A stretch of 57,192 nt of DNA, the filler included, from Jimgerdemannia flammicorona (Eukaryota), in assembly GCA_003990765.1 (NCBI GenBank). It is 3 parts of 3 records of this genome, joined end to end, with 100 filler letters (N's around TTAATTAATTAA, not from the genome) between each part and the next. Parts side by side here need not be neighbours in the genome. Positions count along the whole stretch, not along the records: positions 1 to 19,003 come from RBNJ01002053.1; positions 19,104 to 38,098 come from RBNJ01002054.1; positions 38,199 to 57,192 come from RBNJ01002055.1. One strand, 5' to 3'. Position 1 is the stretch's first letter. The number at the start of each line of letters is the position of its first letter. The translations under genes were made by a program, and so were the position numbers. Below the pieces are notes generated by a model that made no database searches, was not told the origin of the DNA, and worked only from the letters and a program-made list of their open reading frames with translations. Positions 1,881-48,315 of this stretch are shown here, piece after piece.

Positions 1881-3955
1881 TGTAAGAGGGTTACTTTTTA
1901 GGGTGACCGTTACATAGTTCTGGAAGGGTTTTCTGGAAGCTCTGGATATTCTAGAAGACCGTTTTCTTATGGTCAAGATCAATTTTGTATGGAGTACGTC
2001 CTCTACGCTTATTGATTTCAAGATCGGGTTGATGTCTCAACCAAAGTCCTTTTTCAGACTAGTTCTGGATGTTCAGGATTTTCCATATTTTAGGAAGTTC
2101 AAGAAACTAAGACCAGCTTAGTTGAATTGGCGTATCGCTGCAGACAATACCCAATTAGGAAATTTCGTGACAGAGTTAGGAGTAGGACCTAACAGAGAGC
2201 AGATTTACTTAAGAGTGGTTTGTGGGTTATGGAATAGGTTTATTTGCTATTCATGATATTGCTATACTAGGAATATTTGTATGAAGGGGTATTGTGGGGA
2301 AGTGCTCAGGAGTTGTGTTCCGATTGTTCAAGTCCATTCAAGTCTGAGATTCTGAGGTCTGGGGGAGGGGGTATTTATACTAGTGAGGGGCTATCTGGAC
2401 TATGCTAGATATGGATGTAGCACTAAGTGCCTTGCTGAGTCGGAGTGCAGTCACATAGTACAAGTGTGGTCTGACATGTCAAGGGATCGTCTGACTGCTG
2501 AGTCAGTTCACAGTCATGTCGTACAAGGCTAATCTAAGTATACTATGACTGCTAGGCTATTTATGAGTTTAGGCACTGTCTGGGTAGTCTTCGATGACAT
2601 CACCATCGATTGCATCATCTCTGATGAAGTAGTCGTCTAGGAAGAGTGGTTCGTGGATTACTTCTCCTTGTTGGCTGAGGTAGTAATATATTGGGACTTC
2701 ATCTCCATCCTACAGGATAGCATCGTCTGTTTCGTATGCTGGATAAGGTGTTGGTGGGCGAAGGATGGGTATACTGTCTTCACTTTCATTGGATTCGCTG
2801 TCTGCATATCTTCTATAGGTTACAGCACTATGAGTTGCGGGGTTATAGTATGCTGGCAGCTGTGGTTCATGTCGCTTGTACTCGGGTGGTGGAGTGGTTG
2901 GTTCAATCTCGAGGGTTGTCTGAAGGTACAGGTTGTGTTCTCCAGTCTCCTCATTGTAATTGAAGTAATCAGGGGTAAACGCGGGTTGGTATTCGTGCCA
3001 GTGGTCATTGTCCCAATAAGTCTCATATGCAGTTATGAACTGTTGTAAGTTCATCGGCAAGGTCGGCGGAGTGATCAGGGTTGGCAGAGATCCTTGGCTA
3101 GAGGTCATGTCAGTGTCAGAGGGATCATTGTCTTCTGCTTCATCTTCATCGAAGTGGATTATATCATAGACGTCCTTCATGGTGTATCCGACTTGAGGCA
3201 TTTGCAGGATATGGTCATCAGGGTGCGGGAAGGTTCTGTCTGTGGTCTGGACATATTCGAGGTACTTGTGGTTGAGTTCTTGTATCATGTCATCGATTTG
3301 GCCATAGGACAGGGTAGCAACCATTTCGCTAGTAGTAACTCGGAGGTGGGGAATGAAGGCGTTATACTCGTAGAAGAGTTCTTGATGTTTGCGGGCGATG
3401 AGCTTCTGGTGTTGAGACATCTGGGTAATGTCTGTATCATGGTGATGTTCAACCATGTCTTCCAGGAGGTGGCCGATCTAGTAGTAGCTGGAGATTTGTC
3501 CGATTCAGTGGGCCTCGTTAAGCATGTTCAGGGCATTCCATTGGGCTTCCACGAAGTAGAGGGGTGCCAGGCTATAGATATTTATGAGGGGCAGAGGGGG
3601 TGTGGCTTGGTTGACAATGGCATTCCAAATGTCAGCGCGGATGCGGTTATAGATCTCAGTGGTCATGTTTGTGTGTTTGGAAGTTGTGGTTATTGTTTGT
3701 TTTGGTTCTCTGATTCGACGCATCTTGGTGCTCGGTATATATGCATTTGGTCCTGATTGGTAAGGTTCCGTTTGTGTAGATCTTGTGTTCTGTGACTTCG
3801 TATTGACTCAGCTTTGTGCACTGTGACTTCGGTTTGACTCAGCTTCGTGATCAAGCAGGTGATTTCCAGATTTGTTCGGAGGTTGCATGTGATTTCAGTG
3901 GCTTTGTTCAGAGAGTGACATGTAATTTCGGTGGCTTGGAGGTTGTGCGCTTACA
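1881..3955 (-). repeat. 3' LTR of element B (2075 bp)
   Basis: TGTAAGAGGG...GCGCTTACA, colinear with 10474-12552; - strand TATAAATA at 2379-2372. Confidence 0.95.
2569..3723 (-). pseudogene. LTR-encoded accessory ORF of element B (consensus ~384 aa; unknown function)
   Basis: ORFs 3723-3505 and 3456-2710 share a frame; the stops at 3505, 3478 and 2710 are sense codons in the other LTR; ends TAA at 2569. Confidence 0.8.
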
Positions 3956-3968
3956 ACTCTCCCCTTCT
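3956..3968 (-). other. Polypurine tract of element B
   Basis: AGAAGGGGAGAGT on the - strand abutting the 3' LTR. Confidence 0.85.
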
Positions 3969-4379
3969 TAGCTTTCGACATCCTTGTTGGGGCCTTCTAA
4001 TTTGTTCTAGTGTTGTTACACCATTTGGGAGGTCAAAAGTCTGGTAAGGTCCATTTTCTCAGAAAGTGGCATGCTCATAGTACAGTTGCCTAACACGTTG
4101 GATTCACACGTTAAAGGGTCATGTGTTCAATGCTGTGTGCCGGAAGTGATTCTGACATCAATCACTGCTGGAGAATTTCCTCTAAGGAATCTTCTTAAAT
4201 GTCTATGCCTTATTTCCCACCAGTGGTATGGGGAGAATAGGCTTGCTTTCAGTTTGCTATTTTTCCAGAGGGTCAGTATTCTTGTCTTGTTTTGCTGAGT
4301 TCTTGACTTAGTTCGTGATAGTTATAATGTTCAGGAGAGTAATATATAGTATGTATGGATAGGTGCAGAGTATTTGGTT

Positions 4380-9512: not shown

Positions 9513-10458
9513 GTTGTTTACTGGAGGTAGCTGGACTGCTGGTAGTGGTGTTACTGGTACTACTTGAGATACTGGTGCAGAGTGTGATGGGGTTCTTTGG
9601 ATCTGTGTAAGTTGCTGGAGTAGTAGTTGTGGATCTGGAGTAAGGGCTTGATAGATAGCTGTTTGTTGCTGTGTAGGTGTATTCTGTCCTGATGGATGTG
9701 TGTCTCCTTCAGTAGTGTATCTGAGATCGAATTCGGTGAGATACTCCTCCTCTTCTTCGGTTTGGTCCCTGTGTAATTGGGTTTACTCAGCGTTAAAGTA
9801 GACAGAATCAGTTGTATATCTGATCTCAGATGGACTTAATTCAAAGTCAAGTTCAGGTTCAGTATTGGTTTCAGATTCAGGTAGGATTGTAGCAGGGCCT
9901 GCTTCAGGTTTGGGGTCAGGTAGTTGATAATGGGTTTCTCTTGCTTCTTCTTTAAGAATATGGTGGGCCTTGCTGTTCTGGAATCGGTAGTATAAGGCAG
10001 TCTTGGTCCTGGTGCAGTGAAAGTCGGTAGAGTTGAGCCACTTGGCTACAGAGGCTTGGGCTTCGTGAGGAACTAAGACTAGAAAGACTGCTGCTGGTTG
10101 TCCTAGGTCGCTCGGATTTGTGGAGCTGACAAAACTCTTATTGAGAAGAGTAAAGAAGGCTTCAATAAGACCTTCTTCATCTTGACTTGCTGGGTGTAGT
10201 GCAAGGAGTTCGGTGAATAGGATTTCGCCTATTTGCTGGTTTAACTTGAGTACTTCTTTTTTTGAATGAAGTTTATCCCACTTGTTGCAGGTGTGGAGGT
10301 CAAATTGTCCTTGTACATCAGATTCAATTCTCTCCAGATTGTCAGATTGTTCAGATAAATTCCAGTTCAGAGGTTGGGCTTTATACCAACTTGTAGGAAT
10401 TCACAGAAGAGTTTGTAGTGGGGTGAGGAAGCATCTTGAAGCAGAATTGGATTATAAA

Positions 10459-10470
10459 CCGCTGCTACCA
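10459..10470 (-). other. Primer binding site of element B, probably initiator tRNA-Met
   Basis: TGGTAGCAGCGG 3 nt inside the 5' LTR; TGGTAGC is complementary to the 3' end (GCUACCA) of fungal and animal tRNAi-Met. Confidence 0.75.
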
Positions 10471-10473
10471 AGT

Positions 10474-12552
10474 TGTAAGAGGGTTACTTTTTAGGGTGAC
10501 CGTTACGTAGTTCTGGAAGGGTTTTCTGGAAGCTCTGGATATTCTGGAAGACTGTTTTCTTATGGTCAAGATCAATTTCATATGGAGTATGTTCTCTACG
10601 CTTATTGATTTCAAGATCGGGTTGACGTCTCAACCAAAGTCCTTTTTCGGACTAGTTCTGGATGTTCAGGATTTTCTGTATTTCAGGAAGTTCAAGAAAC
10701 TAAGACCAGCTTAGTTGAATTGGCGTATCGCTGCAGACAATACCCAATTAGGAAATTTCGTGATGGAGTTAGGAGTAGGACCTAACAGGGAGCAGATTTA
10801 CTTAAGAGTGGTTTGTGGGTTATGGAATAGGTTTATTTGCTATTCATGATATTGCTATACTAGGAATATTTGTGTGAAGGGGTATTGTGGGGAAGTGCTC
10901 AGGAGTTGTGTTCCGATTGTTCAAGTCCATTCAAGTCTGAGATTCTGAGGTCTGGGGGAGGGGGTATTTATACTAGTGAGGGGCTATCTGGACTATACTA
11001 GATATGGATGTAGCACTAAGTGCCTTGCTGAGTCGGAGTGCAGTCACGTAGTACAAGTGTGGTCTGACATGTCAAGGGATCGTCTGACTGCTGAGTCAGT
11101 TCACAGTCACGTCGTACAAGGCTAATCTAAGTATACTATGACTGCTAGGCTATTTATGAGTTTAGGTACTGTCTGGGTAGTCTTCGATGACATCACCATT
11201 GATTGCATCATCTCTGATGAAGTAGTCATCTAGGAAGAGTGGTTCGTGGATTACTTCTCCTTATTGGCTGAGGTAGTAATACATACATCGGGACTTCATC
11301 TCCATCCCACAGAATAGCATCGTCTATTTCGTATGCTGGATAAGGTGTTGGTGGGCGAAGGATGGGTGTACTGTCTTCGCTTTCATCGGATTCGCTGTCT
11401 GCGTACCTTCTATAGGTTACAGCACTATGAGTTGCGGGGTTATAGTATGCTGGCGGCTGTGGTTCATGTCGCTCATACTCGGGTGGTGGAGTGGTTGATT
11501 CGATCTCGAGGGTTGTCTGAAGGTACAGGTTGTGTTCTCCAGTCTCTTCATTGTAATTGAAGTAATCGGGGGTAAATGCAGGTTGGTATTCGTGTCAGTG
11601 GTCATTGTCCCAATAAGTCTCGTATGCAGTTATGAACTGTTGTAAGTTCATCGGCAAGGTCGGCGGAGTGATCAGGGTTGGCAGAGATCCTTGGCTAGAG
11701 GTCATGTCAGTGTCAGAGGGATCATTGTCTTCTGCTTCATCTTCATCAAAGTGGATTATATCATAGACATCCTTCATGGCATATCCGACTTGAGGCATTT
11801 GCAGGATATGGTCATCAGGGTGCGGGAAGGTTCTGTCTATAGTCTGGATATATTCGAGGTACTTGTGGTTGAGTTCTTGTATCATGTCATCGATTTGGCC
11901 ATAGGACAGGGTAGCAACCATTTCGCTGGTAGTAACTCGGAGGCAGGGAATAAAGGCATTGTACTCGTAGAAGAGTTCTCGATGTTTGTGGGCGATGAGC
12001 TTCTGGTGTTGAGACATCTGGGTAATGTCTGTATCATGGTGATGTTTGACCATGTCTTCCAGGAGGTGGCTGATCTGGTAATAGCTTGAGATTTGTCTGA
12101 TTTGGTGGGCCTCGTTAAGCATGTTCAGGGCATTCCATCAGGCTTCCACGAAGTAGAGGGGTGCCAGGCTATGGATATTCATGAGGGGCAGAGGGGGTGT
12201 GGCTCGGTTGACAATGGCATTCCAAATGTCAGCACGGATGCAGTTATAGATCTCAGTGGTCATGTTTGTATGTTTGGAAGTTGTGGTTATTGTTTGTTTT
12301 GGTTCTCTGATTCGATGCATCTTGGTGCTTGGTATATATGCATTTGGTCCTGATTGGTAAGGTTCTGTTTATGTAGATCTTGTGTTCTGTGACTTTGTAT
12401 TGACTCAGCTTTGTGCGCTGTGACTTCGGTTTGACTCAGCTTCGTGATCAAGCAGGTGATTTCCAGATTTGTTCGGAGGTTGCATGTGATTTCAGTGGCT
12501 TTGTTCAGAGGGTGACATGTAATTTCGGTGGCTTGGAGGTTGTGCGCTTACA
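10474..12552 (-). repeat. 5' LTR of element B (2079 bp)
   Basis: Colinear with 1881-3955, with a 4-nt insertion near 11281; TATA at 10964-10973. Confidence 0.95.
11162..12320 (-). pseudogene. Second copy of the B LTR accessory ORF
   Basis: Pieces 12320-12138 and 12122-11595 share a frame; stops fall at different codons from the 3' LTR copy. Confidence 0.8.
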
Positions 12553-12557
12553 GAAAG

Positions 12558-15500: not shown

Positions 15501-16689
15501 TAAATCAATCATGAATAAGGAGCTCTACTATGGAATTATCACATACCTGGGACAGCAAAAGATGCCCCAACATCTGGAAGAATGGACACAAATGATTATC
15601 AACAGAACATAGAAACAATTCGAAACTGATGGAGAAATACTGAAGAAAGGAAAACTACTAGTCATATCAGAACACAAGAAGGAGCAAGTGATGAAATCAG
15701 TATATAAACTTGGCCATCTAGGAGGAATGAATACATATGACAAGGCAAGAAGAACAATATGGTGGCCAGGGATAAAGGAAGATATCAGACAATTCATCAA
15801 AACCTGCGACAAATGCCAGAAACAGAAACAAGACCAATGAAACCAGGCCCCGGGATCAGCATGTATAGAACCAGTACCATTTGCCCACATAGCAATGGAT
15901 GTAATTGGCCCTCTACCCTTGATCCTGACTGGTAACCGATATATCATTGTCATTATAGACCTTTTTATGAAGTGGATAGAAGCAGGACCTCTCAAGAAAG
16001 CCAATGCACAGTTAATTGCTGATTTCTTCTACAAGGAAATCATCTGCCAGTTCAAGACCTCAACATAAGTAACTATAGATAGAGGAACAGAATTTGTGAA
16101 CCAGCTCTTTGAGGTTCTTTACAAGAAGTACAAGATCTAGCACATTTGGATCACAGTCTATCACCCCCAAGAAAATAGACAAGCAGAAAGGACCAATAAG
16201 ACCCTCAAGAATGTTATTGCCAAGATCTGTGATAACTATGAAAACTGGGATTACTATCTGCCAATAGTATTATCCACTCTCTGGGATATCTGATCACAAA
16301 GTATCCACTTTACCCCTTGAGAAATGCTATTTGGAGAAGAATGTTCTCAGGGAACCCTATCATCTAATAGAGATACTATATGGAAACATGTGGACATGGA
16401 AATATGGAGACTACACCAAATCAGGAAGAAGGCTGAGAATTACATAACCAAGGCACAGACACTACAATAGAGGAATGTGGAAAAGACCCACAAACCCTTG
16501 GAGATTATCAAGATAAGAGACAAAGTCCTAGTATATCGGAATATGGTAGAAGCTTTATGGTCATAAAACTGGAGCCCAAGTAGGAAGGACCTTACCTGGT
16601 GCAAGATATAAAAGGGGCTACAAAAACCCTCAGGCACAATAATTTCCACCACCATTCACCAAAACCGACTCAAGAAATATTATGGCTAG
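12558..16689 (+). pseudogene. pol: Element A gag end plus pol: protease, CPHG module, dUTPase, RT, RNase H, integrase
   Basis: AIIDMGVG (degenerate DTG), GGVIDSDYTGEI, LCVDYRKLN, YVDD at ~14691, LQTDVS, IN zinc finger GHLG...CDKC, GPY; ends RLKKYYG* at 16689. Confidence 0.9.
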
Positions 16690-17068
16690 TAACAAAAGTA
16701 CTGCAATGGCACTCAAGATCACTAGCACTGCCCAAAGAGCCATTGAGAGACAATGGTGCACCACCAAGCCTCCAACCATAGAGAAGTCTTATGACAGTAT
16801 CCAAAGCATCATGTAGACTCATCTCTCTCAAATCTCACACTTTAAGGCCTATCAGCATCGAAACGAATTTCAAGAGTACTTCAAACTTGGCCAAGTACTC
16901 AACTAAGACCCAGAAATAACCAAAGAAAATTGGATCACAGAATACCAGCTCTCTTATTCCTAGATCACTATTGCTAAGAGAATCCACAAGCTATTCTGAG
17001 AAAATGAACCAGCACTAGCCCATGCGACACCATTGGAAAACAGTAATACAACAAATCACACAATATAA
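16682..17068 (+). pseudogene. Element A accessory ORF between integrase and 3' LTR, homologous to the LTR ORFs of B/C/D/E
   Basis: MASNKST...QRAIERQW...FQEYFKLGQVL...ITIAKRIHKLF*ENEPALAH, with 4 internal stops; its ATG overlaps the end of IN. Confidence 0.62.
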
Positions 17069-17142
17069 GACCATACAGACCATTGAAGCCTGGGAGTTTG
17101 AATAGATGCTTTAGGGACAAGATCATCTATTCAAGAGGAAGT

Positions 17143-17601
17143 TGTAATGGTATAGCCAGATTCAGAAGAAGGAAATAGAGAACAGATACTTGATCACACC
17201 CAGTCCCAAAGTAGTATAGCTACATAGTTAGCAGTCCTCAATTTCACCACTTGCTAAATATTTTACAAAGTATGAGATTGAGTTTCTTGATTTAGTATAG
17301 CATTTCGCAACTAGCAAAATATTTCACAAAGTGTTAAATAACTCATAACTTAGCCACATAACTCAGTAACCATCTCATAGCTAGCAAACTTGTATAAATA
17401 ACCCAATATCTTCAAGTGAATAAACCTCAGATCGAAATAGTTCAAAGCAAAGAGATAGCAAAGGAACTAGTAAGTCTGTAGGCAGATATACTTCGAACTC
17501 ACCCACCCTCCCCTGCAAACTCAAAGGACTCTGAGAAGTTAGAGAAGATCAAGTTTTCAAGATACAGAAATCTGATATACTTTCAAATCTGCTACATTAC
17601 A
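17143..17601 (+). repeat. 3' LTR of element A
   Basis: TGTAATGGTATAGCC...GCTACATTACA. Confidence 0.92.
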
Positions 17602-17699
17602 ATATATTAAATAGACTATTTTAGTATATAATATTAGTAATATTATTAATATTATAGTTTATTTTTAATTTATAATATATTAAGATTATAGATTATTAA

Positions 17700-20070: not shown

Positions 20071-20688
20071 TTCTCTAAAAACTATGTTAAAAGTATTATT
20101 AGAAGTTTGTATAATATGAATTATAGTAGAGAGAGATGCCCAGCAAATACCCTGCACTTATTAAACTAGGAGACAACAATGTCATCTATACTCAAGAAAA
20201 GAGAAATATTAGGATATATCTCTATAGCAATAATGCAAAATCTGCTAGTATCTTTCTAGTTATATATATTATATATTCCAGAAATCAGCAAAAATCTCTT
20301 TTTGATGAGAAAAATGATGTCCTACAATAATAAAGAAATATATATATTATCACATAGTAGTTGCTGAGTCCTTCAAATATACCAGATTCTCTTCAAGGTA
20401 TATCTCTTAGACTAACTCAAGTTTGTTATAAATAAGTTCTTATTGGAGTGCCTTCCCAAGGTCTTATAGTCCTCAAACTTCTTATCTTTAACTGTCTTGT
20501 TATCTCTTAGATTGCTTGTAAGGAAGTGTGTATATTGTACTGAGAAGACTGACTTTATTTCAGGGGAAATAAGAGGAGTATTTATACAAAATACAATTCA
20601 ATGGTTACTAAGATATAAAGCTAAATATAAATTCCAATTACTAAAACTACTAAGTTCTAGGGCTGGCATTGATGATTATATAGGTTCA

Positions 20689-20888
20689 GGATGCTGGCAT
20701 TATTTAGTATCATATCAAAATGTCAGTGCTGGAACAATTTCGCATCACCTCAGAATACCAGTGCTGGCATTATCCAGTGTTACATGAGAATACCAGTGCT
20801 GGAACAATTTCGCATCACCTCAGAATACCAGTGCTGGCATTATCCAGTGTTACATGAGAATACCAGTGCTGGCATTATCTAGTGTAAC
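20689..20888. repeat. 35-bp tandem repeat (~6 units, alternating 70-bp higher-order unit) in the C LTR U3
   Basis: CAGTGCTGG recurs at 20724, 20759, 20794, 20829 and 20864. Confidence 0.9.
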
Positions 20889-20895
20889 AAAGAAC

Positions 20896-21723
20896 TTAGA
20901 GCAGAAAGTTCAGGATTATGAAGGCTTCATCATCATCATCATCACTGAAGGAGATGAGGTCCATGAATTCATTGTGCAGGCCATGTGTCTTGCGTACTTT
21001 GTGTGCTTTGGGTATGTCGTGTGGGATGACATCATCACCAATGACATCATCATGTTTGGCAGGGAAATTGGGAACAAGGTCTGGAGCTCTCCAGTCTATA
21101 AGGTTCTCTTCTACAAAATAGGAGACAAATGTGGGGTCTTGGGGAGATCTAACCCAGATACTTGGGCCTTGGAATACTGAGATCAATCCTTACAGGAATT
21201 GGTCTGGGTTGTCCTGAAGGATAGGGTGCCAGAAGTCTTCTACTTCTTCACTGTTGAGGGTGATAGTGGACTGGGCTTCTGTAGCCACTCTGGCTTCTAG
21301 CATATTGATATGGTGGAATGATAGATCTCTGAAGTCTGAGACTCTAACATACTCCAAGTTGGGGATTGACCATAGTACATGCCTGAAGATCTGATAGATC
21401 TTCTTAGCTGCTCTTATTTCATATATATCCATGGGAGTGGCATCTTGTAGCTCTTGGGTGCTGGCCTCTGGGAACTCCTGGCAGAGGAGGTTTCCTATTT
21501 CATACTCCTGCCACATTTGGAGGCATTCAGTAGCAATGGTGATCCTTGTTTCCATTTCACAGCAGTAGAGAATAAAGTGATAAGGGTCTGCAGTATCCAG
21601 GTTAACACTGGGAGTCCTTCTTGTGTGGGTCTCCATGACTCTTCTGATGTCTTGGAACATTCTTTCCTCAACTGAGATATCTTGGTAATTCCTTGACCTT
21701 GAGGTTTGGCAGGTAGCAGGCAT
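20896..21723 (-). pseudogene. LTR-encoded accessory ORF of the C/D family (275 codons, one internal stop)
   Basis: ORFs 21723-21190 and 21186-20896 are in frame; the TAA is CAA in the D 5' LTR (QFLQGL, ~46040). Confidence 0.8.
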
Positions 21724-22320
21724 TTCATTTGTGATAAGTCTTTGAGCTATTTTGGGATTGGTGGTTCTTATTGGTTACTACTACTGTGGTTCCTTGATTC
21801 TTCTTTTATATTCTTCAGGATACTTGTGCTATAGACACAATGACTCACAGTTGGTCATCATTACTCATCTTGTATGCCATATAATCTTCTTGTGCTCCGA
21901 TCTGGTGGCTTGTAAGGAAAAGCTGTCTCCTGTGCTGATGTCATTATTCTGGGGTCACTGTTATATCTTCCTCCTGAATAAAGATCTTCCTGAATATCTT
22001 TATTCATTAGTTCAGTCCTGAAAAATTTGCTAATCCCATAACCTCTGGCAAGGGGTCAAAAATTGGTATTTATGGGCTGGTGTCTTCCCTTTATATTTTG
22101 GCATAATGGTGAAGAGTCGCTCCCTTCATATAGAGCAAGGGCCTGATTCTGATCTTGATCAATCAGTTGACAGTTCGAACTCCTCTGACTTCAAAAGTCT
22201 CATGGATGAGTAGTTGCCAGTGCTGTATTTCTTAGAGAATGGTCCAGACAGATAGCCTGCTGGTCACGGGACATGCTGTTACAATTCGCGGACTAGAACC
22301 TCGTAGGTGGTCATCATGTA

Positions 22321-27652: not shown

Positions 27653-29203
27653 TGTCATGTAGTGGTCACTGAGTCCTTCAAATATGCCAGATTCTCTTCA
27701 AGGTATATCTCTTAGACTAACTCAAGTTTGTTATAAGCAAGTTCTTATTGGAGTGCCTTCCCAAGGTCTTATAGTCCTCAAACTTCTTATCTTTAAACTG
27801 TCTTGTTATCTCTTAGATTGCTTGCAAGGAAGTGTATATAAGTGAAACCAGAACTGACTTTATTTCAGAGGAAATAAGAGGGGTATTTATACAAAATATA
27901 ATTCAATAGTTGCTAAAATATAAAGCTAAATATAAAATTCAATAACTAAAACTACTAAGTTCTAGGGTCAGTACTGGTTGTACAGATTCAGATTGCTGGT
28001 ATAATTCAGTGTCACATCAGAATACCAGTGCTGGAACAATTCTGTGTCACCTCAGAATGCCAGTACTGGCATTATCCAGTATAACAAGGAACTTAGAGCA
28101 GAATGTTCAAGACCATAGGGGCTTCATCCTCATCATCAGAGGTCAGAATATCTTCAAAGGAGATGAGGTCCACGAACGTTTTGTAAAGGTTGCATAGGTT
28201 GTGCATCTTGCGTATGTCATACATTTTGCATACTTCGATGTCGTGTATCTCGCATATGTCAAAGTCATGTGGGATGATGTCATTGCTGATGATGTCATCA
28301 TATTCAGTGACAGGGAAATTGGGGGCTCTCCAATCTATGAGATTCTCTTCCACAAAATAAGAGACAAATATGAGATCTTGGAGAGGTCTGATCTGGATGC
28401 TTGGGCCTTGGAATACTGAGATCAATCCTTACAGAAATTAGTCTGGGTTGTCCTGGAGGATGGGGTGCCAGAAGTCTTCTACTTCATCACTATTGAGGGT
28501 GATTGTGGACTGAGCTTCTGTAGCCACCCTGGCTTCTAGTGCATTGATATGGCAGGATGACAGGTCTCTGAAGTCTGAGACTCTGACATACTCCAAGTTG
28601 GGGATTGACCATGGTGCATGCCTGAAGATCTGATGGATCTTCTTAGCTGTTCTCGTTTCGTATATATCTATGAGAGTGATATCTTGTAGCTCTTGAGTGC
28701 TGGCCTATAGGAACTCCCAGCAGAGGAGGTTTCCTATTTCGTACTCCTGCTACATTTGGAGGTATTTGGTGGCAATAGTGATCCTTGTTTCCATTTCATG
28801 GTTATAGAGGATATAATGATAAGGGTCATCAGTATCCAGGTTGACACTAGGAGTCCTTCTTGAGTGGGTCCTCATAGCTCTTCTGATGTCTTGGAACATC
28901 CTTTTTTTGACTGAGGTACCTTGGTGGTTCCTTGACCTTAAGGTTTGGCAGGCAGCAGGCATTTCATTTGTGGTAAGTCTTTGAGCTATTTTGGGATTGG
29001 TGGGTCTTGTTGGTTGCTGCTACTATAGTTCCTTGATCCTTCTTTTATATTTCTCAAGGTATCATACTGTGGTCACAGTGACTCACAGTTGGTTATTGTT
29101 GCTCATCTCATATGCCATATGATCTCCTTGTGCTCTGATCTGATGGCTTATGAGGAAAGACTGTCTCCTGTGCTAATGTCATCATTCTGGGGTCACTATT
29201 ACA
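27653..29203 (-). repeat. 5' LTR of element C with degenerate accessory ORF (28962-28093)
   Basis: TGTCATGTAG...CTATTACA; 3 units of the 35-bp repeat. Confidence 0.9.
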
Positions 29204-29587
29204 TTATATATCAAGTGATATAGCTCAAAGATGATATAGTTATATATAAGTTATATTTTTGAGATATCAAAATATATAATAAGAATTTCAATATTATCTA
29301 GTATTTATTAGTTAGTTGTTCAAACTTAATACAACTGTTCTCTTTGATAGTATTGAGTTCATCATTATTATTCTAATTACTTTTATTCTTCTCAAAGTCA
29401 GTCTCATCTCATCTTTCACAAGTTGTATAATCTGGTTTAGGTTCTATTATTATCTTCTTAGCTTAGTGTCTTATAATTTGAATTTTAAAAACTTCAGAGA
29501 TATATATATAATATTTACTAATATATTCTATATAGTATATATATTCAAATAGAATGAGAGTATTATCTATATGGTACATAACTATCT

Positions 29588-31156: not shown

Positions 31157-31172
<16 letters not shown>

Positions 31173-31227
<55 letters not shown>

Positions 31228-36900: not shown

Positions 36901-37099
36901 GTTTGAGCAAAAGAAGTCCTTTTTTTGTATCATTTATTATATTCATTATTCATATATTATATATCATGCTTGATCAATAGTGATATTATTGTCAGATTAC
37001 ATGATTGCTCATTATATCTCATCTGTTTACTCACTACTTGTTCTATTACATCCTTTTCCTCTTAAAAATTAATATCCTCATTAATTTAGAAATTGAGAA

Positions 37100-37889
37100 C
37101 CAGGAGAGGGAAAGGTGGGAAATCCTTCTCAGTATTGTTGTCTTCTCCTTCAGTGACTAGAGGGGTAGTTGCTGATGGTATGATGTCTAGGATAGAGAAG
37201 TCAATGAGGTCTACAAATGGTTCTTGAACTAGAATAGACATTGGGATAGGGATTCTCCATCTAATATAGTTGGGACCATCTAAGTAGAGTTCTTACTCCT
37301 CATATCTGGAAATATCCATTCAGATGGGCAGTTCTTCAAAGAGATCAGAGAGACCTTGAAGCCATTGGTCTGAGTTGTTATTCAGGAGAGAGCTCTAGTG
37401 GGATTTGTAGTCAGTAGATTTGAGAGTAATTTAGAAGTTAGTTTCTTAGACAACCTTGATCTCTAGTTCATCAATCTTAGAGAATAAGAGGTTCTAGAAG
37501 TCCTTTAGTTATATATAGTTAAAGTTGGGAATTGCAAAGAGTATATAGTATATAATTTAATAGATCTTCTTGGCTTGTCTTTGCTTGTGTCTATCTATAT
37601 GAGTCTAGTCTGAGATCTGGTCAGTGGGTAGGCCATTTGAATATTGAAGAAGTTGATGGCCAATTTCAAATTTATGCCAGATTTCTAAATAGCTAGTAGT
37701 AAGGTAGGCCCTTTCAATAAGTTTATGGTGGTCAAGAACATACTGTTCTAGGTCCTAGATAAGGAGATTAAGGGCCTCAGAGCAATAGTTCTTTTCTTAG
37801 ATAGCAACCTGGATATGTTCAAAGAGGCAGTCAATCTGGCTTCAGAGGAGCTGGCTATAGTGAACTGTTTGGTGGTGGGTAGCAGACAT
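37100..37889 (-). pseudogene. Accessory ORF of relic E, homolog of the C/D LTR ORF
   Basis: Manual translation: LEIWHKFEIGHQL...RQAKKIY*II...AIPNFNYI*LKDF...LNNNSDQWLQGLSDLFE vs C LQMWQEYEIGNLL...RAAKKIYQIF...SIPNLEYVRVSDF...LQDNPDQFLQGLISVFQ; TATAAATA ~70 nt upstream; 3' end approximate. Confidence 0.72.
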
Positions 37890-38067
37890 TCTTGTCTTGT
37901 CTTTTCTTTGAGAAGAGAAGGGGGGGATGAGAGTTGTAGTATGTATGCTCTAGCCCTGGGTATTTATACTTATTTATCTATCTGGTGTGATTTTAATTTG
38001 ATCACATTCCTCATAGAAGATATAACCTGTTACTATAAGTAGAGCATGTGCTATTTATATAAGAAAA

Positions 38068-38098
<31 letters not shown>

Positions 38099-38198
38099 NN
38101 NNNNNNNNNNNNNNNNNNNNNNNNNNNNNNNNNNNNNNNNNNTTAATTAATTAANNNNNNNNNNNNNNNNNNNNNNNNNNNNNNNNNNNNNNNNNNNN
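38099..38198. other. Assembly gap with artificial linker
   Basis: 44 N + TTAATTAATTAA + 44 N. Confidence 0.97.
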
Positions 38199-38851
38199 AA
38201 AAAAAAAGAGATCACCTTTATATTATCAAACTAATAAATAAAGCTTATAATATATACTATAATAGTCTATAATATATGAGAGACTCTATATAATTATTAT
38301 GTATAAGTATCCTTATTGAATTGATTCTATCTAAAATCTTGGCTACTATTTATAAATAAAACTCAAAGAGAGTATTTATAAATATATTAATTATATCAAT
38401 AATCTGATAAATTAGATAAATTTTCTAAGTATATTAGTAGAGTATATCAGTAATAAAGATAAGATTCTAGCCTTTATATAAGATCTTCCTAAGATATATA
38501 ATATTATAGTAATCGCTATATACAAGAGTGGAAAACTTATAGACTATACCTATATAATAATAAACCTCATTAATGAAGAGATATATCAAGAAAATAGTAA
38601 TAATTATGATGATGAAAAAGTATTCTACAGGTTATATATATAAGACAAAAAGCATCAATAAGGCCAAAAATATAAAAAAATATAATAATAATAGTAGTAT
38701 GTTTTTTATATAAGTAATATCTATATATATCTACTGATAAGAATATAGTCAGAAAGAGTACCAATACTACCAATGATAATAATATTTGACTTATAGATTC
38801 AGATACTATACAATATGTATAACAGTCTACTGAGAATAGTTTTCAATATAT

Positions 38852-41800
38852 TTATCCTGAAGGATGGAATACCAGAAGTTTTTTACTTTATTACTATCAA
38901 GGGTGATAGTGGACTGGACTTCTATAGCCATTCTGGTTTCTAGTATGTTGATATGGTGGGCTGACAGGTCTCTAAAGTCTGAGACTCTAATATACACTAA
39001 GTTGGGGATCAATCATGATACTGAAGATCTGATGAATCTTCTTAGCTGTTCTTGTTTTGCATATATCTATGAGAGTGGCATCTTATAGCTCTTGAGTACT
39101 GGTCTGTAGAAATTCCCAGCAGAGGAGGTTTCCTATTTCATACTTCTACCACATTTGGAGGCATTCAGTAGTAATGGTGATCCTTGTTTCTATTTTACAG
39201 CAGTAGAGGATATAATGATAAGAGTCACCAGTACCCAGATTGATACTAGGAGACCTTCTTGAGAGGTCCTTATGGTTCTTCTGATGTCTTGGAACATTCT
39301 TTCTTCAACTGAGATACCTTAGTGGTTTCTTGACCTTGAGGTTTAGTGAGCAGCTTATAGTAAGTCTTTGAGCTATTTTGGGATTGGTGGGTCTTATTGG
39401 TTGCTGCTACTGCAGTTCCTTGAACCGTCTTTTATATTTCTCAAGATATCTGAACTATGGTCACAATGACTCACAGTTGGTCATCATCACTCATCTCATA
39501 TGCCTTATGATCTTCTTGTACTCTGATCTGATGACTTGTAAGAAAAAGCAGTCTCTTATGCTGATGTCATCATTCTGAGATCACCATTATATCTTCTTTC
39601 TGAATAAGGATCTTCTTAAGTATCCTTATTCATTGGTCCAGTTTTGAAAAATTTGCTGATCCCATAATCTCTGGCAAGGGGTTGAAAAGTGGTGTTTATG
39701 GGCTGGTATCTTCTCTATGTATTTTGGTGTGATGATGAAGAGTCACTCTCTTTATATAAAGCAAAGACCTAATTCTGATCTTGACTAATCAGTTGATGGT
39801 TTGAACTCCTCTGGCTTTGAAAGTCTCATGAATGAGTAGTTGCTAGTGCTGTATCTCTTAGAGAATGGTCCAGACAGATAGCCTGCTAGTCATGGGACAT
39901 GCTGTTATGATTCATGGACTAGAACCTTGTGGGCAGTCATCACATTTTACTTCTCTTACATAGATTCATGGTACTTCTTGAGTCTGTTCCTATGTACTAT
40001 GGTAGACAGTATGGTCTCTGAGATTTTTCTAAGCCAGAAGGTAGTTCTCTTGATATCTTACACATAGAAGGGTTCTTCCCATTTGGGCTCTAGTTTTCAT
40101 AACCATGAGGCTTCTACCATATTTCAATACAGTAGAACCTTTTCTCTGATTTGGATGGGTTCTAGGATCTTGTGATTCTTTTCTACATTCTTTTTTATCA
40201 GTACTTATGACTTGATGATGTAATCTTCAGCCTTCTTTCTGATTTGGTATAGTCTCCAGATTTCTGCATCAACCCATCTCCAAGTTAGGTCTAGATTTGT
40301 GGCTAAGGTTCCATCAGAATCTTCTTCTCCAAAGAGCAGTTCTCTTGGGGTAAAGTGTGTGCTCTATGACTGTATGTCTTGTAGGACAGAGAGGACAGTT
40401 GGGAGATAATTATCCCAATTCTCATATATCTCTAAGATCTTTGCTAGGATGTTCTTGAGGGTCTTGTTGGTTCTCTCTGTCTGTCCATTTCCTTGAGAGT
40501 GGTACATAGTGGTCTTAATGTACTGGATCTTGTATTTCTGATATATTATCTCATAGAATCTATTGACAAATTCTGTGCCATGGTCTGTTGTGATTTGCTT
40601 CAGTGTCTTGTAGCAGCAGATAATTTCTCAGTACAGGAAGTTAGCTATAGAGAGGGCATTGGCTTCTTGTAATGCTCCTGCTTCTATCCATTTGGTAAAG
40701 AGGTCTACAATAACTATAATATAGCAGTTTCCTGATAGTATTACTGGTAGTGGCCCAATGATATCCATTGCAATGTGGTGGAAGGGGATAGGCTCAATTC
40801 TTGATGACCCAGGTGTCTGGTCTTGCTGATCTTATTTCTGTTTTTGGCACTTGTCACACTCTTTGACAAATTAGTGCAGGTCTTCTTCTATCTTGGGCCA
40901 CTATATGGTTCTTCTTGCCTTATCAAATGTGTTGGTTCCTCTTAGGTGTCCTTGCTCATGTACTTCCTTCATTACTTGATACTTCTTATGTTCAGATATT
41001 ACTAACTTTCCTCCTTTTCTGAGTGTAGTGTTGTCTAGTTCGAACTGTTCCCAAGTCTGGTTGATGATGGTGATTGTCCAGGATTCAAGGTGGTTGGACA
41101 TCTTCTGCTGCCCAAGATAGCTGATTAATCCATAGTATAGCTCCTTATTCATATTGAATAGTCTTAGTGGGGGTGTTTTGGGGTATCCTTGAGAGTGCAT
41201 TAGCATTGGTGTTGGTTCTTCCTGGGTAGTACTCGATAGTACAGTTATACTCTTACAGCCTGTAGATCCATCTGGTATATATTCCTTTGGGGTTCAGAGT
41301 ATGGAATAGCCAGGCAAGAGCAGAATGGTCTGTTTGAATAGTAAAGTATTTCTCAGCTAGGTAGTAGTGGAACTTGTCTACTGCCCAAACTACTGCTAAG
41401 CATTGAGTTTGCATGACTCATAGTTCTGTTCCACTCTGTGGATACCTTGGCTTGCATAAGAGATAACATATTCATATCCATCTTTCTTCTGAGCTAGGAC
41501 TGCTCTAAGTCCTATAGTACTTGCATCTGTCTGCAGGATGAATTCTAGGTTCCAATCTGGTCTTCTGAGGATAGGTACTTGGGTCAACCTAGTCTTGAGT
41601 TCATTGAAGATTTCTTAGTACTTCTTAGTCTATTCAAATTTGGTTTCTTTCTTCAGTAGCTCATAGATAGGTGTGGTAATGTTGGAATATCCTTTGATGA
41701 ATCTTCTGTAGTAGCTGGTCAGTCTAAGGAAGGCATGGACTTCTGTGGTTGTTCTGGGTCTCAGGTAGGCTGCAACAGCCTCAATCGTTATAGAGTCTAT

Positions 41801-44800: not shown

Positions 44801-47800
44801 TTAAGGGTATCATCATAGTTAGCCAAGACAATCTGGTGGCAGATTCAGGTATAGAATGAGTTGAGATCTTTACTAAGTCTCTGGCAGATAGTGTTGAGTT
44901 GATCCTTGAGAGCTTGCTTAATCTCTTCAGTATAGTATGTTGTTCTGAGGAAGGCCTTCATGTTGGAAAGTTTGGCTGCACTATTATTGGCAATAGTGGC
45001 TATATTGAACTTATCTCTGGCAGGTCCTCTGAGGCTGACTAGTAAAAGGACCAATTGTACATCCATACCAAGGGCTCATACAGTGGCAAATTGTTCAAAG
45101 TCTTCAATGAAGGTCAGGATTGACTCTTCAGTAGTATATCTATAGAATGTGGGGGGGTATATTTCCATCTTGTCTTGAATTCTTGCAGGGGTGACCCTTG
45201 TAGTCAGGATAGTTGTTGTGGGGGTTATTCATTTTTCAGCTTGAAAGTGAGAGATTCATCTTGAATTACTAGCCAATGGGCACCAAGTTGTCACATAGTG
45301 GTCACTGAGTCCTTCAAATATGCCAGATTCTCTTCAAGGTGTATCTCTTAGACTAACTCAAGTTTTTTATAAGCAAGTTCTTATTGGAGTGCCTTTCCAA
45401 GGTCTTATAATTCTCAAACTTCTTATCTTTAACTGTCTTGTTATCTCTTAGATTTCTTGCAAGAGATTGTGTATATATGAACTAGAACTGACTTTATTTC
45501 AGAGGAAATAAGAGGAGTATTTATACAAAATATAATTCAATAGTTGCTAAGATATAAAGCTAAATATAAATTCAATAACTAAAATAAAATGTCAGAACAG
45601 AAAAAACTACTAAGTTCCAGGGTCAGCACTGATGATTGTATAGGTTCAGGATGCTAGTATAATTCAGTGTCACATCAGAATGCTGGTGCTGGCATTATTC
45701 AGTATTACATCAAAATGTCAGTGCTGATATTATTCAGTGTTACCAAGAGACTTAGAGCAGAATGTTCAGAACTATGGGGGCTTCATCCTCATCATTACTG
45801 AAGGAGATGAGATCTATAAATTCATCATTGTTGTATAGATTGTACTTTATGCATATCATGCATCTCACATATGTTGCATGGGATGATGTCATTACCAATG
45901 ACATCATCACATTTGGTGGCAGAGAAATCAGGGGCTCTCCAATCTATAAGGTTCTCTTCCACAAAATAGGAGACAAATGTGGGGTCTTGGGGGGGTCTAA
46001 CCTAGATACTTGGATCTTGGAATACTGAGATTAATCCTTGCAGGAATTGGTCTGGGTTATCCTGAAAGATGGGATACCAGAAGTCTTCTACTTTGTCACT
46101 GTCAAGGGTTGTAAGCACATAATCTCTAAGCCACCAAAATCACATATCATCTTCAGAACTAATTTGGAAACCATATATAAGACTACAAAACAAGTTACTG
46201 AAGAGATCATCTGATTATACAAAATATGTCTGCCAGTACAAGAACCTACCACCAAGATATAAGAATACTAGCAGAAGTACTACAACCATAAGACTGACTC
46301 TGAACTGCTATAACTAGTTTAGTATATAGTACTATTATAAAAGGAAGCCGAAAGTACCAAAATCAAACCAAGATAAGAAGAACTCTATCTCATCTATCAA
46401 AAGGTTCATGAATTGCACTTATCAACCCAAGATCAAGATATACTGTAACTATACAAGACCTCATTACTTAGCAGAAGTAAAACACATTTGAACAACTCTG
46501 TTTGCTCTATCTGTATCACCTCTATTAGAGAGTGACAGATGCTTCATCTGAACTCAAGAAAGCTAACATCATCAAAACCAATCTCAAGCCATCTACATGA
46601 CAGATATTACTACTAGAAATTGCCTTAGATTATAGAAAATATCATTTCCGAGAGGTTCAAACCCCCAGCCATAACATTGAGAGCCCTCACCCTAGACAAG
46701 GATGGCCAGTCCTCACAAATATGCCAGTAGACCAAAAAAAAAGAGAACCAAGACCTGTTATTCTTGTACAACTACTGTCACCAAGGATAGCCTTAATCTT
46801 GCAAGAGATAGAAGTGATGATACCTTGAAGCTGATGATGTCAGAAGTCAGAAAACTGCTCAGACTTTGCTAGTGATGATGTCATCAATAGATATCATCAA
46901 AGACTAACCAGACAGCATCTAAACCTATAAATAGCTTAGCAGTCATAGTATAGTTAGATTAGCCTTATATGATGTAACTGTGAACTGACTCAGCAGTCAG
47001 ATGATCTCTTGATATGTCAGATCACACTTGTACTATGTAACTATATTCTGACTCAGCAAGGCACTAAGTACTACATCCATATCTAGTATAGTCCAGATAG
47101 CCCCTCATCAGTATAAATACCTCCTCTCCCAGACCTCAGAATCACAGACTTAAAGACTCAAACAAATAAGAACATTTCTGAATATTTTTCCACAATATCC
47201 CTTTACATAACTACTTCTAGTATAGAAATATTATGAATAGCAAATAAACCTATTTAATAACCCACAAACTACTCTTAAGTAAATCTACTTCCTGTTAGGT
47301 TCCACTCCTAACTCTATCACAAAATTTCCTAATTGGGTATTTTCTGCAATGATACATCAATTCAACTAAGCTGGTCTTAGTTTCTTGAACTTCCTGAAAT
47401 ACAAAAAATCCTGAACATCTAGAACTAGTCTGAAAAAGGACTTTGGTTGAGATATCAACCTGATCTTGAAATCAATAAGCATAGAGGATATACTCTATAT
47501 AAAATTGATCTTGACCATAAGAAAATGGTCTTCCAGAATATCCAGAACTTCCAGAAAACTCTTCCAGAACTATGTAATGATTACTCAAAAAAGGCAATCC
47601 TCTTACAAGAGTGATAGTGGACTGGGCTTCTGTAGCCACTCTGGCTTCTAGTGCATTGATATGGTAGACTGACAGGTCTCTGAAGTCTGAGACTCTAACA
47701 TACTCCAAGTTGGGAATTGATCATGATGTATGCCTAAAGATCTGATAAATCTTCTTAGCTGTCCTTATTTTGTGTATATCCATAGAAGTGGTATCTTGTA

Positions 47801-48315
47801 GCTCTTGAGTACTGGTCTGTGTGAACTCCCGGTAGAGGAGGTTTCCTATTTCATACTTCTGCCACATTTGGAGGCATTCAGTAGCAATAGTGATCCTTGT
47901 TTCCATTTTATGGCAGTAGAGAATATAATGATAAGAGTTACCAGTACTCAGGTTGACACTAGGAGTCTTCTTGAGTAGGTCCTTATGGCTCTTCTGATGT
48001 CTTGGAACATCCTTTCTTCAACTGAGATACCTTGGTAGTTTCTTGACCTTGAGGTTTGGCAAGCAGCAGACATTTTGTTTATAGTAAGTCTTTGAGCTAT
48101 TTTGGGATTGGTGGGTCTTATTGGTTACTGCTACTACAGTTCCTTAATCCTTCTTTTATATTCCTTAAGATATCTGAACTGTGGTTGCAATGACTCACAG
48201 TTGGTCATCATTGCTCATCTCATATGCTGTATGATCTTCTTGTGCTCTGATCTGGTAGCTTGTAAGAAAAGGCTGTCTCCTGTACTGATGTCATTATTCT
48301 GGGATCACTATTATA
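38852..48315 (-). mobile_element. Element D: second, more mutated copy of the C family; 3' LTR truncated (38852-39591); 5' LTR 45289-48315 interrupted
   Basis: Colinear with 21210-29203 throughout; PBS TGGTGCCCATTGG at 45285-45273. Confidence 0.93.
46110..47607 (+). mobile_element. Solo LTR of a B-related family inserted in the D 5' LTR
   Basis: TGTAAGC...CTCTTACA; TSD AGGGT/AGAGT; 46870-47607 matches the reverse complement of 1881-2620, and 46110-46150 matches the opposite LTR end. Confidence 0.9.

Follow-up and report, generated by a model that had tools for sequence, protein, structure and literature searches.

In mouse mammary tumor virus (MMTV), a vertebrate retrovirus, sag is a whole protein ORF that lies in U3 of both LTRs, in sense orientation and apart from gag-pol-env, and it encodes a type II membrane glycoprotein, Sag. 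Complex retroviruses carry 3' regulatory genes such as foamy-virus tas/bel1, tax, and nef, and Tas is built of a folded N-terminal part and an acidic C-terminal part. Athila elements carry env-like ORFs. For the LTR retrotransposons of bdelloids, ORF3s are described as common to unrelated families (PMC5408684), an "add. ORF" of unknown function appears in a Figure 3 legend (PMC2864245), and the brtn of Botrytis Boty/BcGypsy1 is, by title, an antisense gene (Zhao et al. 2011, in PMC8365987).

A family of ORFs carried in LTRs was found in Jimgerdemannia flammicorona (GCA_003990765.1). We read this feature, with a probability of about 60%, as an accessory gene that fungal-type Ty3/gypsy retrotransposons carry in their LTRs, a small gene being complete in each long LTR and placed in U3. 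The window, meaning the whole stretch of DNA analyzed, is 57,192 nt long and consists of three records joined with 100-N spacers (RBNJ01002053.1, positions 1-19,003; RBNJ01002054.1, 19,104-38,098; RBNJ01002055.1, 38,199-57,192). It contains the following LTRs.

1881..3955, minus strand: 3' LTR of element B (chromovirus), 2075 bp, ends TGTAAG...CTTACA
10474..12552, minus strand: 5' LTR of element B, 2079 bp, followed by the PBS
20348..21965, minus strand: 3' LTR of element D, 1618 bp
27653..29205, minus strand: 5' LTR of element D, followed by PBS TTGGTGCCCATTGGC
263-729, plus strand: 5' LTR of element A, 467 bp, without the ORF
17143..17601, plus strand: 3' LTR of element A, without the ORF
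45289..48319, minus strand: 5' LTR of element C, its ORF interrupted by solo LTR F
38852..39592, minus strand: 3' LTR of element C, truncated
46110..47607, plus strand: solo LTR F, B-related, with TSD AGGGT/AGAGT, sitting in the C 5' LTR

The carriers B and D have the paired TG...CA LTRs, TSD, PBS, and PPT of Ty3/gypsy (Metaviridae) elements, together with the pol order PR-RT-RNase H-IN, which reads dUTPase-PR-RT-RH-IN-SH3-Chromo in B and PR-dUTPase-RT-RH-IN(H2C2) in D (Pfam, sense frames). The LTRs of B (TSD CTTTC; PPT GAAGGGGAGAG; PBS TGGTAGCAGCGG) are 95.7% identical (1881-3955 versus 10462-12552, self-BLAST). Elements D and A have the ends TGTAAT...(T)GACA/TTACA and the PBS TTGGTG(C/T)C(C/T)ATTGGC, and the PBS of A, C, and D does differ from that of B, as the earlier note on this DNA had claimed, the sequences diverging after the first 7 bases. 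That note had also called B a chromovirus and A, C, and D devoid of a chromodomain. A chromodomain follows the integrase of B (PF00385, E 1.7e-16), and Pfam at E<=0.001 returned no such domain from D in its three sense frames, so that the statement holds for B and D, the two elements scanned. By their RT-RNase H identity of 35%, B and D are two deeply diverged Ty3/gypsy lineages. E is one LTR-like fragment that adjoins a non-LTR element and has no internal part, and for this reason the term gypsy family does not apply to it.

Seven sense-strand ORF copies lie in LTRs of the window (two each in B, D, and C, one of the C copies being split and one truncated, and one in E). They are listed here with a further candidate in element A.

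2569..3723, minus strand: B-type ORF, copy B3, 384 codons with 3 internal stops
11162..12320, minus strand: B-type ORF, copy B5, with stops and a frameshift near the end
20896..21723, minus strand: C/D-type ORF, copy D3, MPATCQTS..., 1 internal stop (HMM E 3e-98)
28093..28962, minus strand: C/D-type ORF, copy D5, 4 internal stops (HMM E 1.3e-94)
47608-48073 and 45750-46109, minus strand: ORF of the C 5' LTR, split by solo LTR F
about 38854-39400, minus strand: ORF fragment of the C 3' LTR, its MPA start codon deleted
37083..37889, minus strand: E-type ORF, MSATHHQT...VLNF, about 10 stops
16682..17068, plus strand: candidate remnant in A (QEYFKLG...AKRIHKLF), between the end of pol and the PPT, outside the 467-bp LTR

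The peptides reported earlier for B (twice), A, D (twice), and E are present where they had been placed, and the two C copies are additional to that list. The B peptide quoted there is stop-repaired; B3 has a stop at the quoted Q. In both LTRs of each element, the ORF starts 232 nt from the LTR start in B and about 245 nt from it in D.

The C/D and E ORFs clearly form one family by sequence comparison: C/D matches E by tblastn at E 5.8e-22, and an HMM made only from external proteins, run across the window, retrieves the E-type ORF at E 1.7e-52. A phmmer search against 1.84 billion representatives returned five proteins (best E 3.3e-127), and a profile search added further full-length members of 271 and 325 aa with a common MP(A/P)xR start. 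The environmental locus L001 has an intact ORF of 291 codons. The family had been called uncharacterized, and sequence and fold searches gave no match to a described domain among Pfam, PDB, or BFVD entries; the best Foldseek E against BFVD was 0.64, and such a lack of matches is still compatible with distant kinship to Sag, Nef, or Tas.

The B-type ORF is probably a distant member of this family, probable and not certain because the hhalign probability is just 49.5%. The earlier note had made its case depend on significant profile scores between the B, A, and C/E proteins; the hhalign comparison of B, in which the B profile was built from 3 sequences, is significant at P 1.7e-4, over 137 collinear columns from residue ~10 in both, at that middling probability. 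BLASTP of B against C/D/E gave E 0.065 at 21% identity, neither BLASTP nor hhalign found an alignable motif common to the C-terminal halves, and the sole environmental B-type relative spans the C-terminal part only. These values would suit two unrelated LTR ORFs, acidic ORFs having been gained or having evolved independently in long LTRs, a reading that we consider quite improbable given the controls that count against it: the real hhalign score was 38.1 against a column-shuffle maximum of 27.0 (0/176 shuffles as high), and the reversed control scored 16.6. Among 576 six-frame chunks of the window, B3 (E 0.003) and B5 (E 0.05) were the top matches to the external-protein HMM after the C/D/E copies, B thus being its best nonfamily match. 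The MAFFT alignment of B, end to end across about 165 residues, has four invariant columns and places FPHP opposite FWHP, the two types are alike in strand, LTR offset, and domain plan, the N half being neutral and helical and the C half acidic, and the joint structural model was still confident when B rows were added. These comparisons support a genuine uncharacterized protein family whose LTR carriers belong to two deeply diverged lineages.

For the A remnant, homology to the family is suggestive at most (window-wide HMM E 1.5; hhalign P 0.0069 and probability 5.5%, the real score being reached by 1/136 shuffles). The proposal that four gypsy families share the gene is therefore not supported, A being statistically unproven, with its candidate outside the LTR, and E no gypsy family, and the proposal that the gene crosses lineages is supported for D and the probable member B but not for A.

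Every window copy (7/7) carries stops or truncations, and divergence within the window is close to neutral: with the CpG/CpA bias modeled, P was 0.13, 0.019, and 0.21. Solo LTR F, moreover, matches nt 1-96 and 1338-2079 of the B LTR, and its central 700 nt are unrelated to the B LTR and contain no ORF of the family, which makes the gene dispensable to the working of an LTR. All of this could be expected of a passive passenger, the relic of a captured host gene or other element in an ancestral LTR, of no service to the retrotransposon. The pol control in the same bias model, however, did no better (P 0.027), and as pol is equally "neutral" in the same copies, their decay is silent about the active ancestors. 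Across lineages, DNA identity at codon positions 1/2/3 between L001 and E, D3, and D5 was 0.64/0.70/0.50, 0.54/0.62/0.40, and 0.49/0.62/0.40, respectively, with the order 2>1>3 (chi-square P 1e-5 to 5e-7), and the flanking LTR DNA in these comparisons was 44-52% identical. This pattern implies that the ORF frame was under coding constraint. At least four lineages have intact environmental ORFs, 247-342 aa long, at 26-56% identity with start and end motifs alike, and a TATA box is conserved at constant distance upstream (see below), which makes the passenger a very improbable explanation. The dN/dS check that had been proposed for the copies gave a naive value of 0.3, which is a mutation-bias artifact; since about 90% of copy-to-copy differences are CpG/CpA transitions, the check is uninformative here.

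The placement of the ORF relative to U3 was judged from the following promoter and poly(A) motifs.

17393-17424, plus strand: core module TATAAAT-N19-AATAAA of the A 3' LTR, by motif search
513-544, plus strand: the same module in the A 5' LTR
20554..20586, minus strand: core module TATAAAT-N20-AATAAA of D3 (P2/R), 238 nt before the LTR end
27859-27891, minus strand: core module TATAAAT-N20-AATAAA of D5
45493-45525, minus strand: core module TATAAAT-N20-AATAAA of the C 5' LTR
2239..2379, minus strand: TATAAAT (LTR nt 1577) and AATAAA (nt 1712) of the B 3' LTR, downstream of the ORF
about 10832-10972, minus strand: TATAAAT and AATAAA pair of the B 5' LTR, downstream of the ORF
21804..21810, minus strand: upstream TATAAAA (P1) of D3, 87 nt before the ATG
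29043-29049, minus strand: upstream TATAAAA of D5, 87 nt before the ATG
48154-48160, minus strand: upstream TATAAAA of the C 5' LTR, 87 nt before the ATG
37962-37968, minus strand: upstream TATAAAT of E, 79 nt before the ATG

The core module TATAAAT-N19/20-AATAAA has six matches in the window where 0.09 were expected, every one of them in sense orientation. The two LTRs of A, the two of D, and the 5' LTR of C contain it, 216-238 nt ahead of the LTR end, and in C/D it lies 200-310 nt past the ORF stop. In B, TATAAAT follows the ORF end by about 190 nt, and the LTR tail bearing the motif pair is 86% conserved in solo LTR F. Because the core module is downstream of the ORF, the ORF is probably located in U3. 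The claim that the gene lies mostly inside U3 is supported by motif anatomy for the LTR-borne B, C, and D copies, and not for the A candidate outside the LTR. We infer the U3/R assignment, the transcription start, the poly(A) site, expression, and an ORF promoter from motifs only.

The same motifs could be read differently. The upstream TATA[AT]A[AT] lies at a conserved distance from the ATG in D3, D5, and the C 5' LTR (87 nt each), E (79 nt), and L001 (80 nt); it might be the sole promoter, the ORF then being the 5'-proximal cistron of a very long R/U5 leader and TATAAAT...AATAAA a poly(A) efficiency and positioning signal. The yeast 3'-end signal consists of AT-rich TATATA-like elements followed by AAUAAA-like elements, which the pair resembles, and the 135 nt between the two motifs in B are ill-suited to a TATA-to-cap distance for AATAAA. 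B has no good TATA at -80 (TATATA lies 18 nt before the first ATG, which is followed by another in-frame ATG at codon 20). We regard such a leader as distinctly unlikely, because in the ORF-less 467-bp LTR of A the module, located at nt 251 where an LTR promoter usually sits, holds the sole TATA, because the constant TATA-to-AATAAA spacing of 26-27 nt in A and C/D suits TATA-to-cap with a short R, and because such a leader would entail an unusually long R (>1.1 kb) or strong-stop DNA (>1.3 kb). The tails of the A and D LTRs align weakly, scoring 50 where shuffled sequences reached 43 at most.

With the ORF in U3, the long LTRs, which measure 1.6 kb in C/D and 2.1 kb in B, would each host a complete small gene, in the order of a TATA 79-87 nt before a conserved start codon (C/D, E, and L001), an ORF of 270-385 codons, and then, 216-500 nt ahead of the LTR end, the element's ordinary core module (TATAAAT followed by AATAAA). 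The ORF would be doubled with each LTR and kept on solo LTRs. Its mRNA would be initiated from the upstream TATA and terminated by the poly(A) signal of the LTR itself, and the ORF would also be found at the 3' end of the genomic RNA.

The N-terminal domain, about 150 aa, is confidently predicted by AlphaFold2 to be an all-helical bundle of seven helices (pLDDT 79.4, pTM 0.72), and no relative of it was detected in Pfam, PDB, or BFVD. A short conserved middle motif, FWxPxLQDNPDQ[WF]LQGL...F.GPPI...I.W, is followed by an acidic, disordered C-terminal half (pI about 4.1), which in the C/D/E type ends in the hydrophobic-acidic motifs DLIxF and VLNFL. No transmembrane segment was found in five members, the best 19-residue Kyte-Doolittle means being 0.64-1.09 against roughly 1.6 for a transmembrane helix, and the protein is therefore not env-like in the sense of the errantivirus/Athila ORF3, as had been proposed. 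The suggestion of a transactivator or antisilencing factor fits a helical N-terminal domain with an acidic tail: the former might bind LTR DNA or a host factor, and the latter might serve as an activation domain, like Tas/Tax of complex retroviruses. A nuclear trans-acting regulator that raises LTR transcription is the function that we favor, nevertheless a tentative and somewhat doubtful assignment, made from architecture only. The same gene could have another function, either antisilencing, acting on chromatin or RNAi via the acidic tail, or that of a particle, nuclear-import, or integration cofactor. Acidic disordered tails are found also in histone-binding proteins, and the heavy CpG/CpA transition decay would be the footprint of a methylation- or RIP-like defense worth blocking for the element; no silencing-suppressor, Gag, or histone-chaperone domain was found in Pfam, PDB, or BFVD, and we consider these other functions fairly unlikely.

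The widest form of our reading, unlikely as a whole, would be that a self-contained U3 regulatory gene has long been resident in both chromovirus and nonchromovirus lineages, at 35% RT identity, with its own promoter, an LTR poly(A) end, two copies per element, and expression from solo LTRs, whose product of new fold activates the LTR or disarms silencing. If so, these would be "complex" retrotransposons, analogous to complex retroviruses, and any solo LTR would be a potential trans-acting gene.

Such an LTR protein gene was previously undescribed, the arrangement being known otherwise mainly from a few retroviruses. Like the bdelloid ORF3, the Athila env-like ORFs, and the "add. ORF" of PMC2864245, it is an extra Ty3/gypsy ORF present across diverged lineages; those ORFs, as far as their descriptions go, precede gag or follow pol within the internal region, in contrast to the present ORF inside the LTR. 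From the fungal "add. ORF" it is set apart by description only, and overlap is possible. It shares with brtn its occurrence as an extra gene of unknown function in a fungal gypsy element but, in contrast to that antisense gene, is on the sense strand, a distinction again by description only (PMC8365987). Like tas/bel1, tax, and nef, it is a 3'-end accessory gene that reaches U3 and may have its own promoter, known here from sequence alone, and like Tas it combines a folded N-terminal part with an acidic C-terminal part; unlike them, it has no detected homology and the entire gene, not just its end, is LTR internal. As in MMTV sag, the ORF is complete, in sense orientation, and inside the putative U3 of both LTRs. 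Unlike Sag, its product has no transmembrane segment and no sequence or fold match to viral proteins, and the ORF has an apparent TATA of its own at the LTR start, in fungal-type Ty3/gypsy elements.

Self-comparison and Pfam scans of the sense frames revealed a nest of decayed LTR retrotransposons (A to D), together with an LTR-like fragment (E) and a solo LTR (F):

1881-3955 and 10474-12552 (-): LTRs of element B, 2.08 kb each, 95.7% identical
263-729 and 17143-17601 (+): LTRs of element A, 467 bp; element B is inserted within A
20348-29205 (-): element D, LTRs of ~1.6 kb
38852-48319 (-): element C, LTRs of ~1.6 kb, the 3' LTR truncated at 38852
46110-47607 (+): solo LTR F, 1498 bp, target-site duplication AGGGT/AGAGT; splits the C 5' LTR
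between D and C (-): fragment E and a non-LTR element with RVT_1 only

The LTRs of element B end in TGTAAG...CTTACA, with a CTTTC target duplication on both sides, and its pol domains follow the order dUTPase-PR-RT-RNase H-IN-SH3-chromodomain; because of the chromodomain, B is a chromovirus. Elements C and D, which are 87% identical to each other, have the order PR-dUTPase-RT-RNase H-IN, and Pfam returned no chromodomain match in the sense frames of D. The primer-binding site TTGGTG(C/T)C(C/T)ATTGGC is common to A, C, and D, and that of B is TGGTAGCAGCGG. Between B and D, RT-RNase H identity is 35%. Both lineages carry a dUTPase, placed differently: before PR in B (8042-8420) and between PR and RT in D (about 25040-25420). 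Variable dUTPase placement in basidiomycete gypsy elements is reported in PMC2864245.

The non-LTR (LINE-like) retroelement at 30900-36750 (-) adjoins or sits within fragment E. Its sole domain match is RVT_1 (E = 1.5e-15), it has a poly(A) run at about 31175-31225, and GC skew is extreme (-0.47) across 32-36 kb, where it lies. No target-site duplication of this LINE could be resolved at E to prove that the E LTR continues past the insertion. Runs of N (assembly gaps) at about 38100-38200 lie just upstream of E, so both the start of the E LTR and the truncation of the C 3' LTR could be artefacts of the assembly. At 1-141, 17826-18070, 30062-30424, and 48533-48902, a short repeat (about 150-360 bp, seen in either orientation) flanks the E region and the outer ends of elements A and C; it may mark a preferred target or be another small element. 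Host genes occupy the right end at 52860-56340 (+): one ORF encodes a C2H2 zinc finger, and exon-like pieces belong to a tRNA synthetase of class I (leucyl-type) that includes its editing domain.

Every peptide that the earlier note quoted was found at its place. Seven copies are solid, those in the 3' and 5' LTRs of B (B3, B5), D (D3, D5), and C (C3, C5) and a single copy in E. With D3 as the tblastn query, D5 was recovered at an E value of 5e-134, C5 as two pieces (1e-59 and 5e-37), the C3 fragment at 4e-37, and the E copy at 5.8e-22. In B and D, where both LTRs carry the ORF, it begins 232 nt and about 245 nt, respectively, after the LTR start. Searched in full with HMMER, a set of 1.84 billion representative proteins yielded five outside relatives of D3, and a profile search added two more full-length ones; about a dozen environmental relatives were obtained in total among billions of proteins searched. 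The relatives of D3, carried by contigs 0.5-4.8 kb long, are all unnamed or "hypothetical". Intact ORFs of 247, 271, 291 (metagenome locus L001), 325, and 342 amino acids share the start MP(A/P)xR and the motifs W(H/Q)EYEIG, AKKIHQ(I/V)F, and (N/H)P(I/L)LQDNPDQ(W/F)LQ, and most end with a C-terminal VLNFL. A metagenome scan for the DNA context of the family returned one locus, of 1535 bp, and no family locus was found in the viral contigs searched. None of 7997 scored candidates was a fused or longer form, which is weak evidence, and the ESM Atlas gave sub-threshold leads only, one of them a Mucoromycota cluster at 0.89.

The ORF has been under long-term protein-coding constraint, as judged from comparison between lineages. 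In plain DNA alignments, identity between the L001 ORF and its relatives at codon positions 1/2/3 was 0.64/0.70/0.50 for E, 0.54/0.62/0.40 for D3, and 0.49/0.62/0.40 for D5 (chi-square P of 1e-5 to 5e-7), and the flanking LTR DNA on each side of the ORF was 44-52% identical. This codon-position pattern, conservation of the start and end, and the presence of intact ORFs in several lineages sharing 26-56% identity together carry the conclusion. The comparison of dN/dS across window copies, which the earlier note had advised, was uninformative. Naive NG86 values were 0.29-0.38 in frame versus 0.57-1.1 off frame, and they were equal for the two LTRs of a single element. Of the differences between window copies, 86-98% are transitions, mostly at CpG and CpA/TpG, and this bias makes the naive ratio misleading. 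A permutation that keeps dinucleotide context gave P values of 0.13, 0.019, and 0.21 for the ORF; with the neutral control (B3-B5), the same procedure gave 0.12, and RT-RNase H reached only 0.027. Low dN/dS in window copies was therefore discarded as evidence of constraint, on the equal LTR-pair value and the permutation, and the permutation results indicate that the copies decayed after insertion, ORF and pol alike. The same transition excess holds for all LTR element copies, e.g., the B LTRs and D versus C, and is the trace left by deamination of methyl-cytosine or by a RIP-like process.

To assess membership of the B-type ORF, the window was cut into 576 six-frame chunks and searched with a family HMM built from external proteins only. 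Every C, D, and E copy was recovered (E values from 3e-98 to 4e-12); the B copies ranked next (0.003 to 0.067), with noise below. A profile-profile comparison of the C/D/E alignment with three B-type sequences gave P = 1.7e-4 and a probability of 49.5%, over 137 collinear columns starting near residue 10 in both. Its score of 38.1 was reached in none of 176 column shuffles (maximum, 27.0), and a reversed-profile control scored 16.6. MAFFT aligned B to the family almost gap-free over about 165 residues, with four invariant columns and FPHP matching up with FWHP. On these four lines of evidence, the B ORF is a probable distant member of the C/D/E family (probability of roughly 0.8). The remnant in A (16682-17068, +) lies between the pol end and the polypurine tract, outside the A LTR. 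It scored an E value of 1.5 with the HMM and P = 0.0069 with hhalign (probability, 5.5%), a score matched by 1 of 136 shuffles; since the remnant had been picked by eye, these values are no evidence of membership. The earlier claim of one family across four gypsy families was overstated, and the crossing of lineages stands for at least two deep Ty3/gypsy lineages, with B as the probable member. We conclude that an LTR-borne gene family, real and previously uncharacterised, is present in at least two such lineages.

In the usual LTR layout, U3 is followed by the TATA box, the cap site, a short R with AATAAA, and then U5. The window contains six TATAAAT-N19/20-AATAAA modules, where 0.09 would be expected and 100 shuffles gave at most one. 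Five of them are in sense orientation, located in both LTRs of A, both LTRs of D, and the 5' LTR of C, 216-238 nt before the LTR end. In A, whose short LTR has no ORF, the position of the module matches the usual layout. In C and D, the ORF stop precedes the module by 200-310 nt. The B LTR has TATAAAT at about nt 1581, about 190 nt past the ORF, and AATAAA at about nt 1716, and this tail is 86% conserved in the solo LTR F. Because these core motifs lie past the ORF, the proposed location in U3 is most probably correct. A second TATA box precedes the start codon by 87 nt in D3, D5, and C5, 79 nt in E, and 80 nt in L001; in B, the sole counterpart is a TATATA located 18 nt upstream of the first ATG. 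The upstream box suggests that the gene probably has a promoter of its own, so that it would be transcribed from the 5' end of the LTR and polyadenylated at the LTR's own signal, and each LTR, solo or paired, would be a complete transcription unit. The main rival takes this same upstream TATA as the genomic promoter, with the ORF inside a long leader; set beside the core motifs past the ORF and the ORF-less A LTR, in which the module (nt 251 of 467) is the only TATA, it appears improbable.

The sixth module, TATAAAT-N18-AATAAA at 49487-49517 (-), lies outside the annotated elements in a stretch of 25% GC and may be what is left of the core of a far older LTR that has decayed completely. Tandem repeats of 70 bp at 20643-20941, about three units in D3 and fewer in D5 and C5, extend across the end of the ORF and the spacer that separates it from the core promoter and are a candidate enhancer or binding array. 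Solo LTR F matches the B LTR only at nt 1-96 and 1338-2079, and nothing of the ORF family is present in its central 700 nt. The LTR families in the window therefore appear to swap a central U3 module that can be exchanged and that the LTR does not need in order to function.

The protein contains no transmembrane segment, in agreement with the earlier view that it is not env-like. Pfam searches with B, D, and 10 family members gave nothing meaningful (best, GrpE at E = 0.3 and ATG5_HBR at 0.13), and PDB sequences gave no match at E ≤ 10. In both B and C/D/E types, the pI of the N-terminal half is close to neutral (6.0-7.2) and that of the C-terminal half acidic (4.05-4.25); in the C/D/E type, the acidic tail carries the motifs DLIxF and VLNFL. 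The full-length AlphaFold2 model was unusable (pLDDT, 45), so fold searches used only the model of the N-domain, which has seven helices (pLDDT, 79.4; pTM, 0.72; 12 rows including B). The best hits were E = 0.47 and TM 0.24 with Foldseek against PDB, Z = 4.8 among 48,161 chains with VIA-align (none with Z ≥ 5), and E = 0.64 in BFVD. The modeled domain thus appears to have no convincing structural relative in these three sets, and its fold is neither named nor proven new. No described retrotransposon domain, a match that would have spoken against the earlier proposal, emerged from Pfam, PDB sequences, or the fold searches. The architecture tentatively suggests a nuclear factor that regulates the LTR in trans, in which targeting would fall to the helical domain and activation to the acidic tail; an anti-silencing or particle-cofactor role is nearly as probable.

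Retrotransposon LTRs usually count as regulatory DNA and nothing more. A conserved gene inside U3, if true, would change the annotation of long LTRs and solo LTRs, because repeat masking keeps such ORFs out of protein databases. It would also be a testable candidate for interaction of the element with host transcription or silencing, and its occurrence in two lineages at 35% RT identity is relevant to the question of whether accessory modules are of ancient origin or have passed between retroelement lineages. In the literature that we found, the additional ORFs described for LTR retrotransposons are internal or antisense. No gene in, or encoded by, an LTR was described there, and a figure legend of PMC2864245 names an "add. 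ORF" in fungal gypsy elements, its function unknown, which may be an earlier sighting. Among known systems, the probable arrangement here resembles that of MMTV sag, an ORF within U3, but the defining membrane anchor of Sag is absent from our protein, and no homology was detected. It also resembles that of foamy-virus tas, a 3' regulator with its own promoter that reaches into U3, again with no homology detected. If true, the family described here would be a fungal counterpart to these U3-borne and 3' accessory genes of retroviruses.
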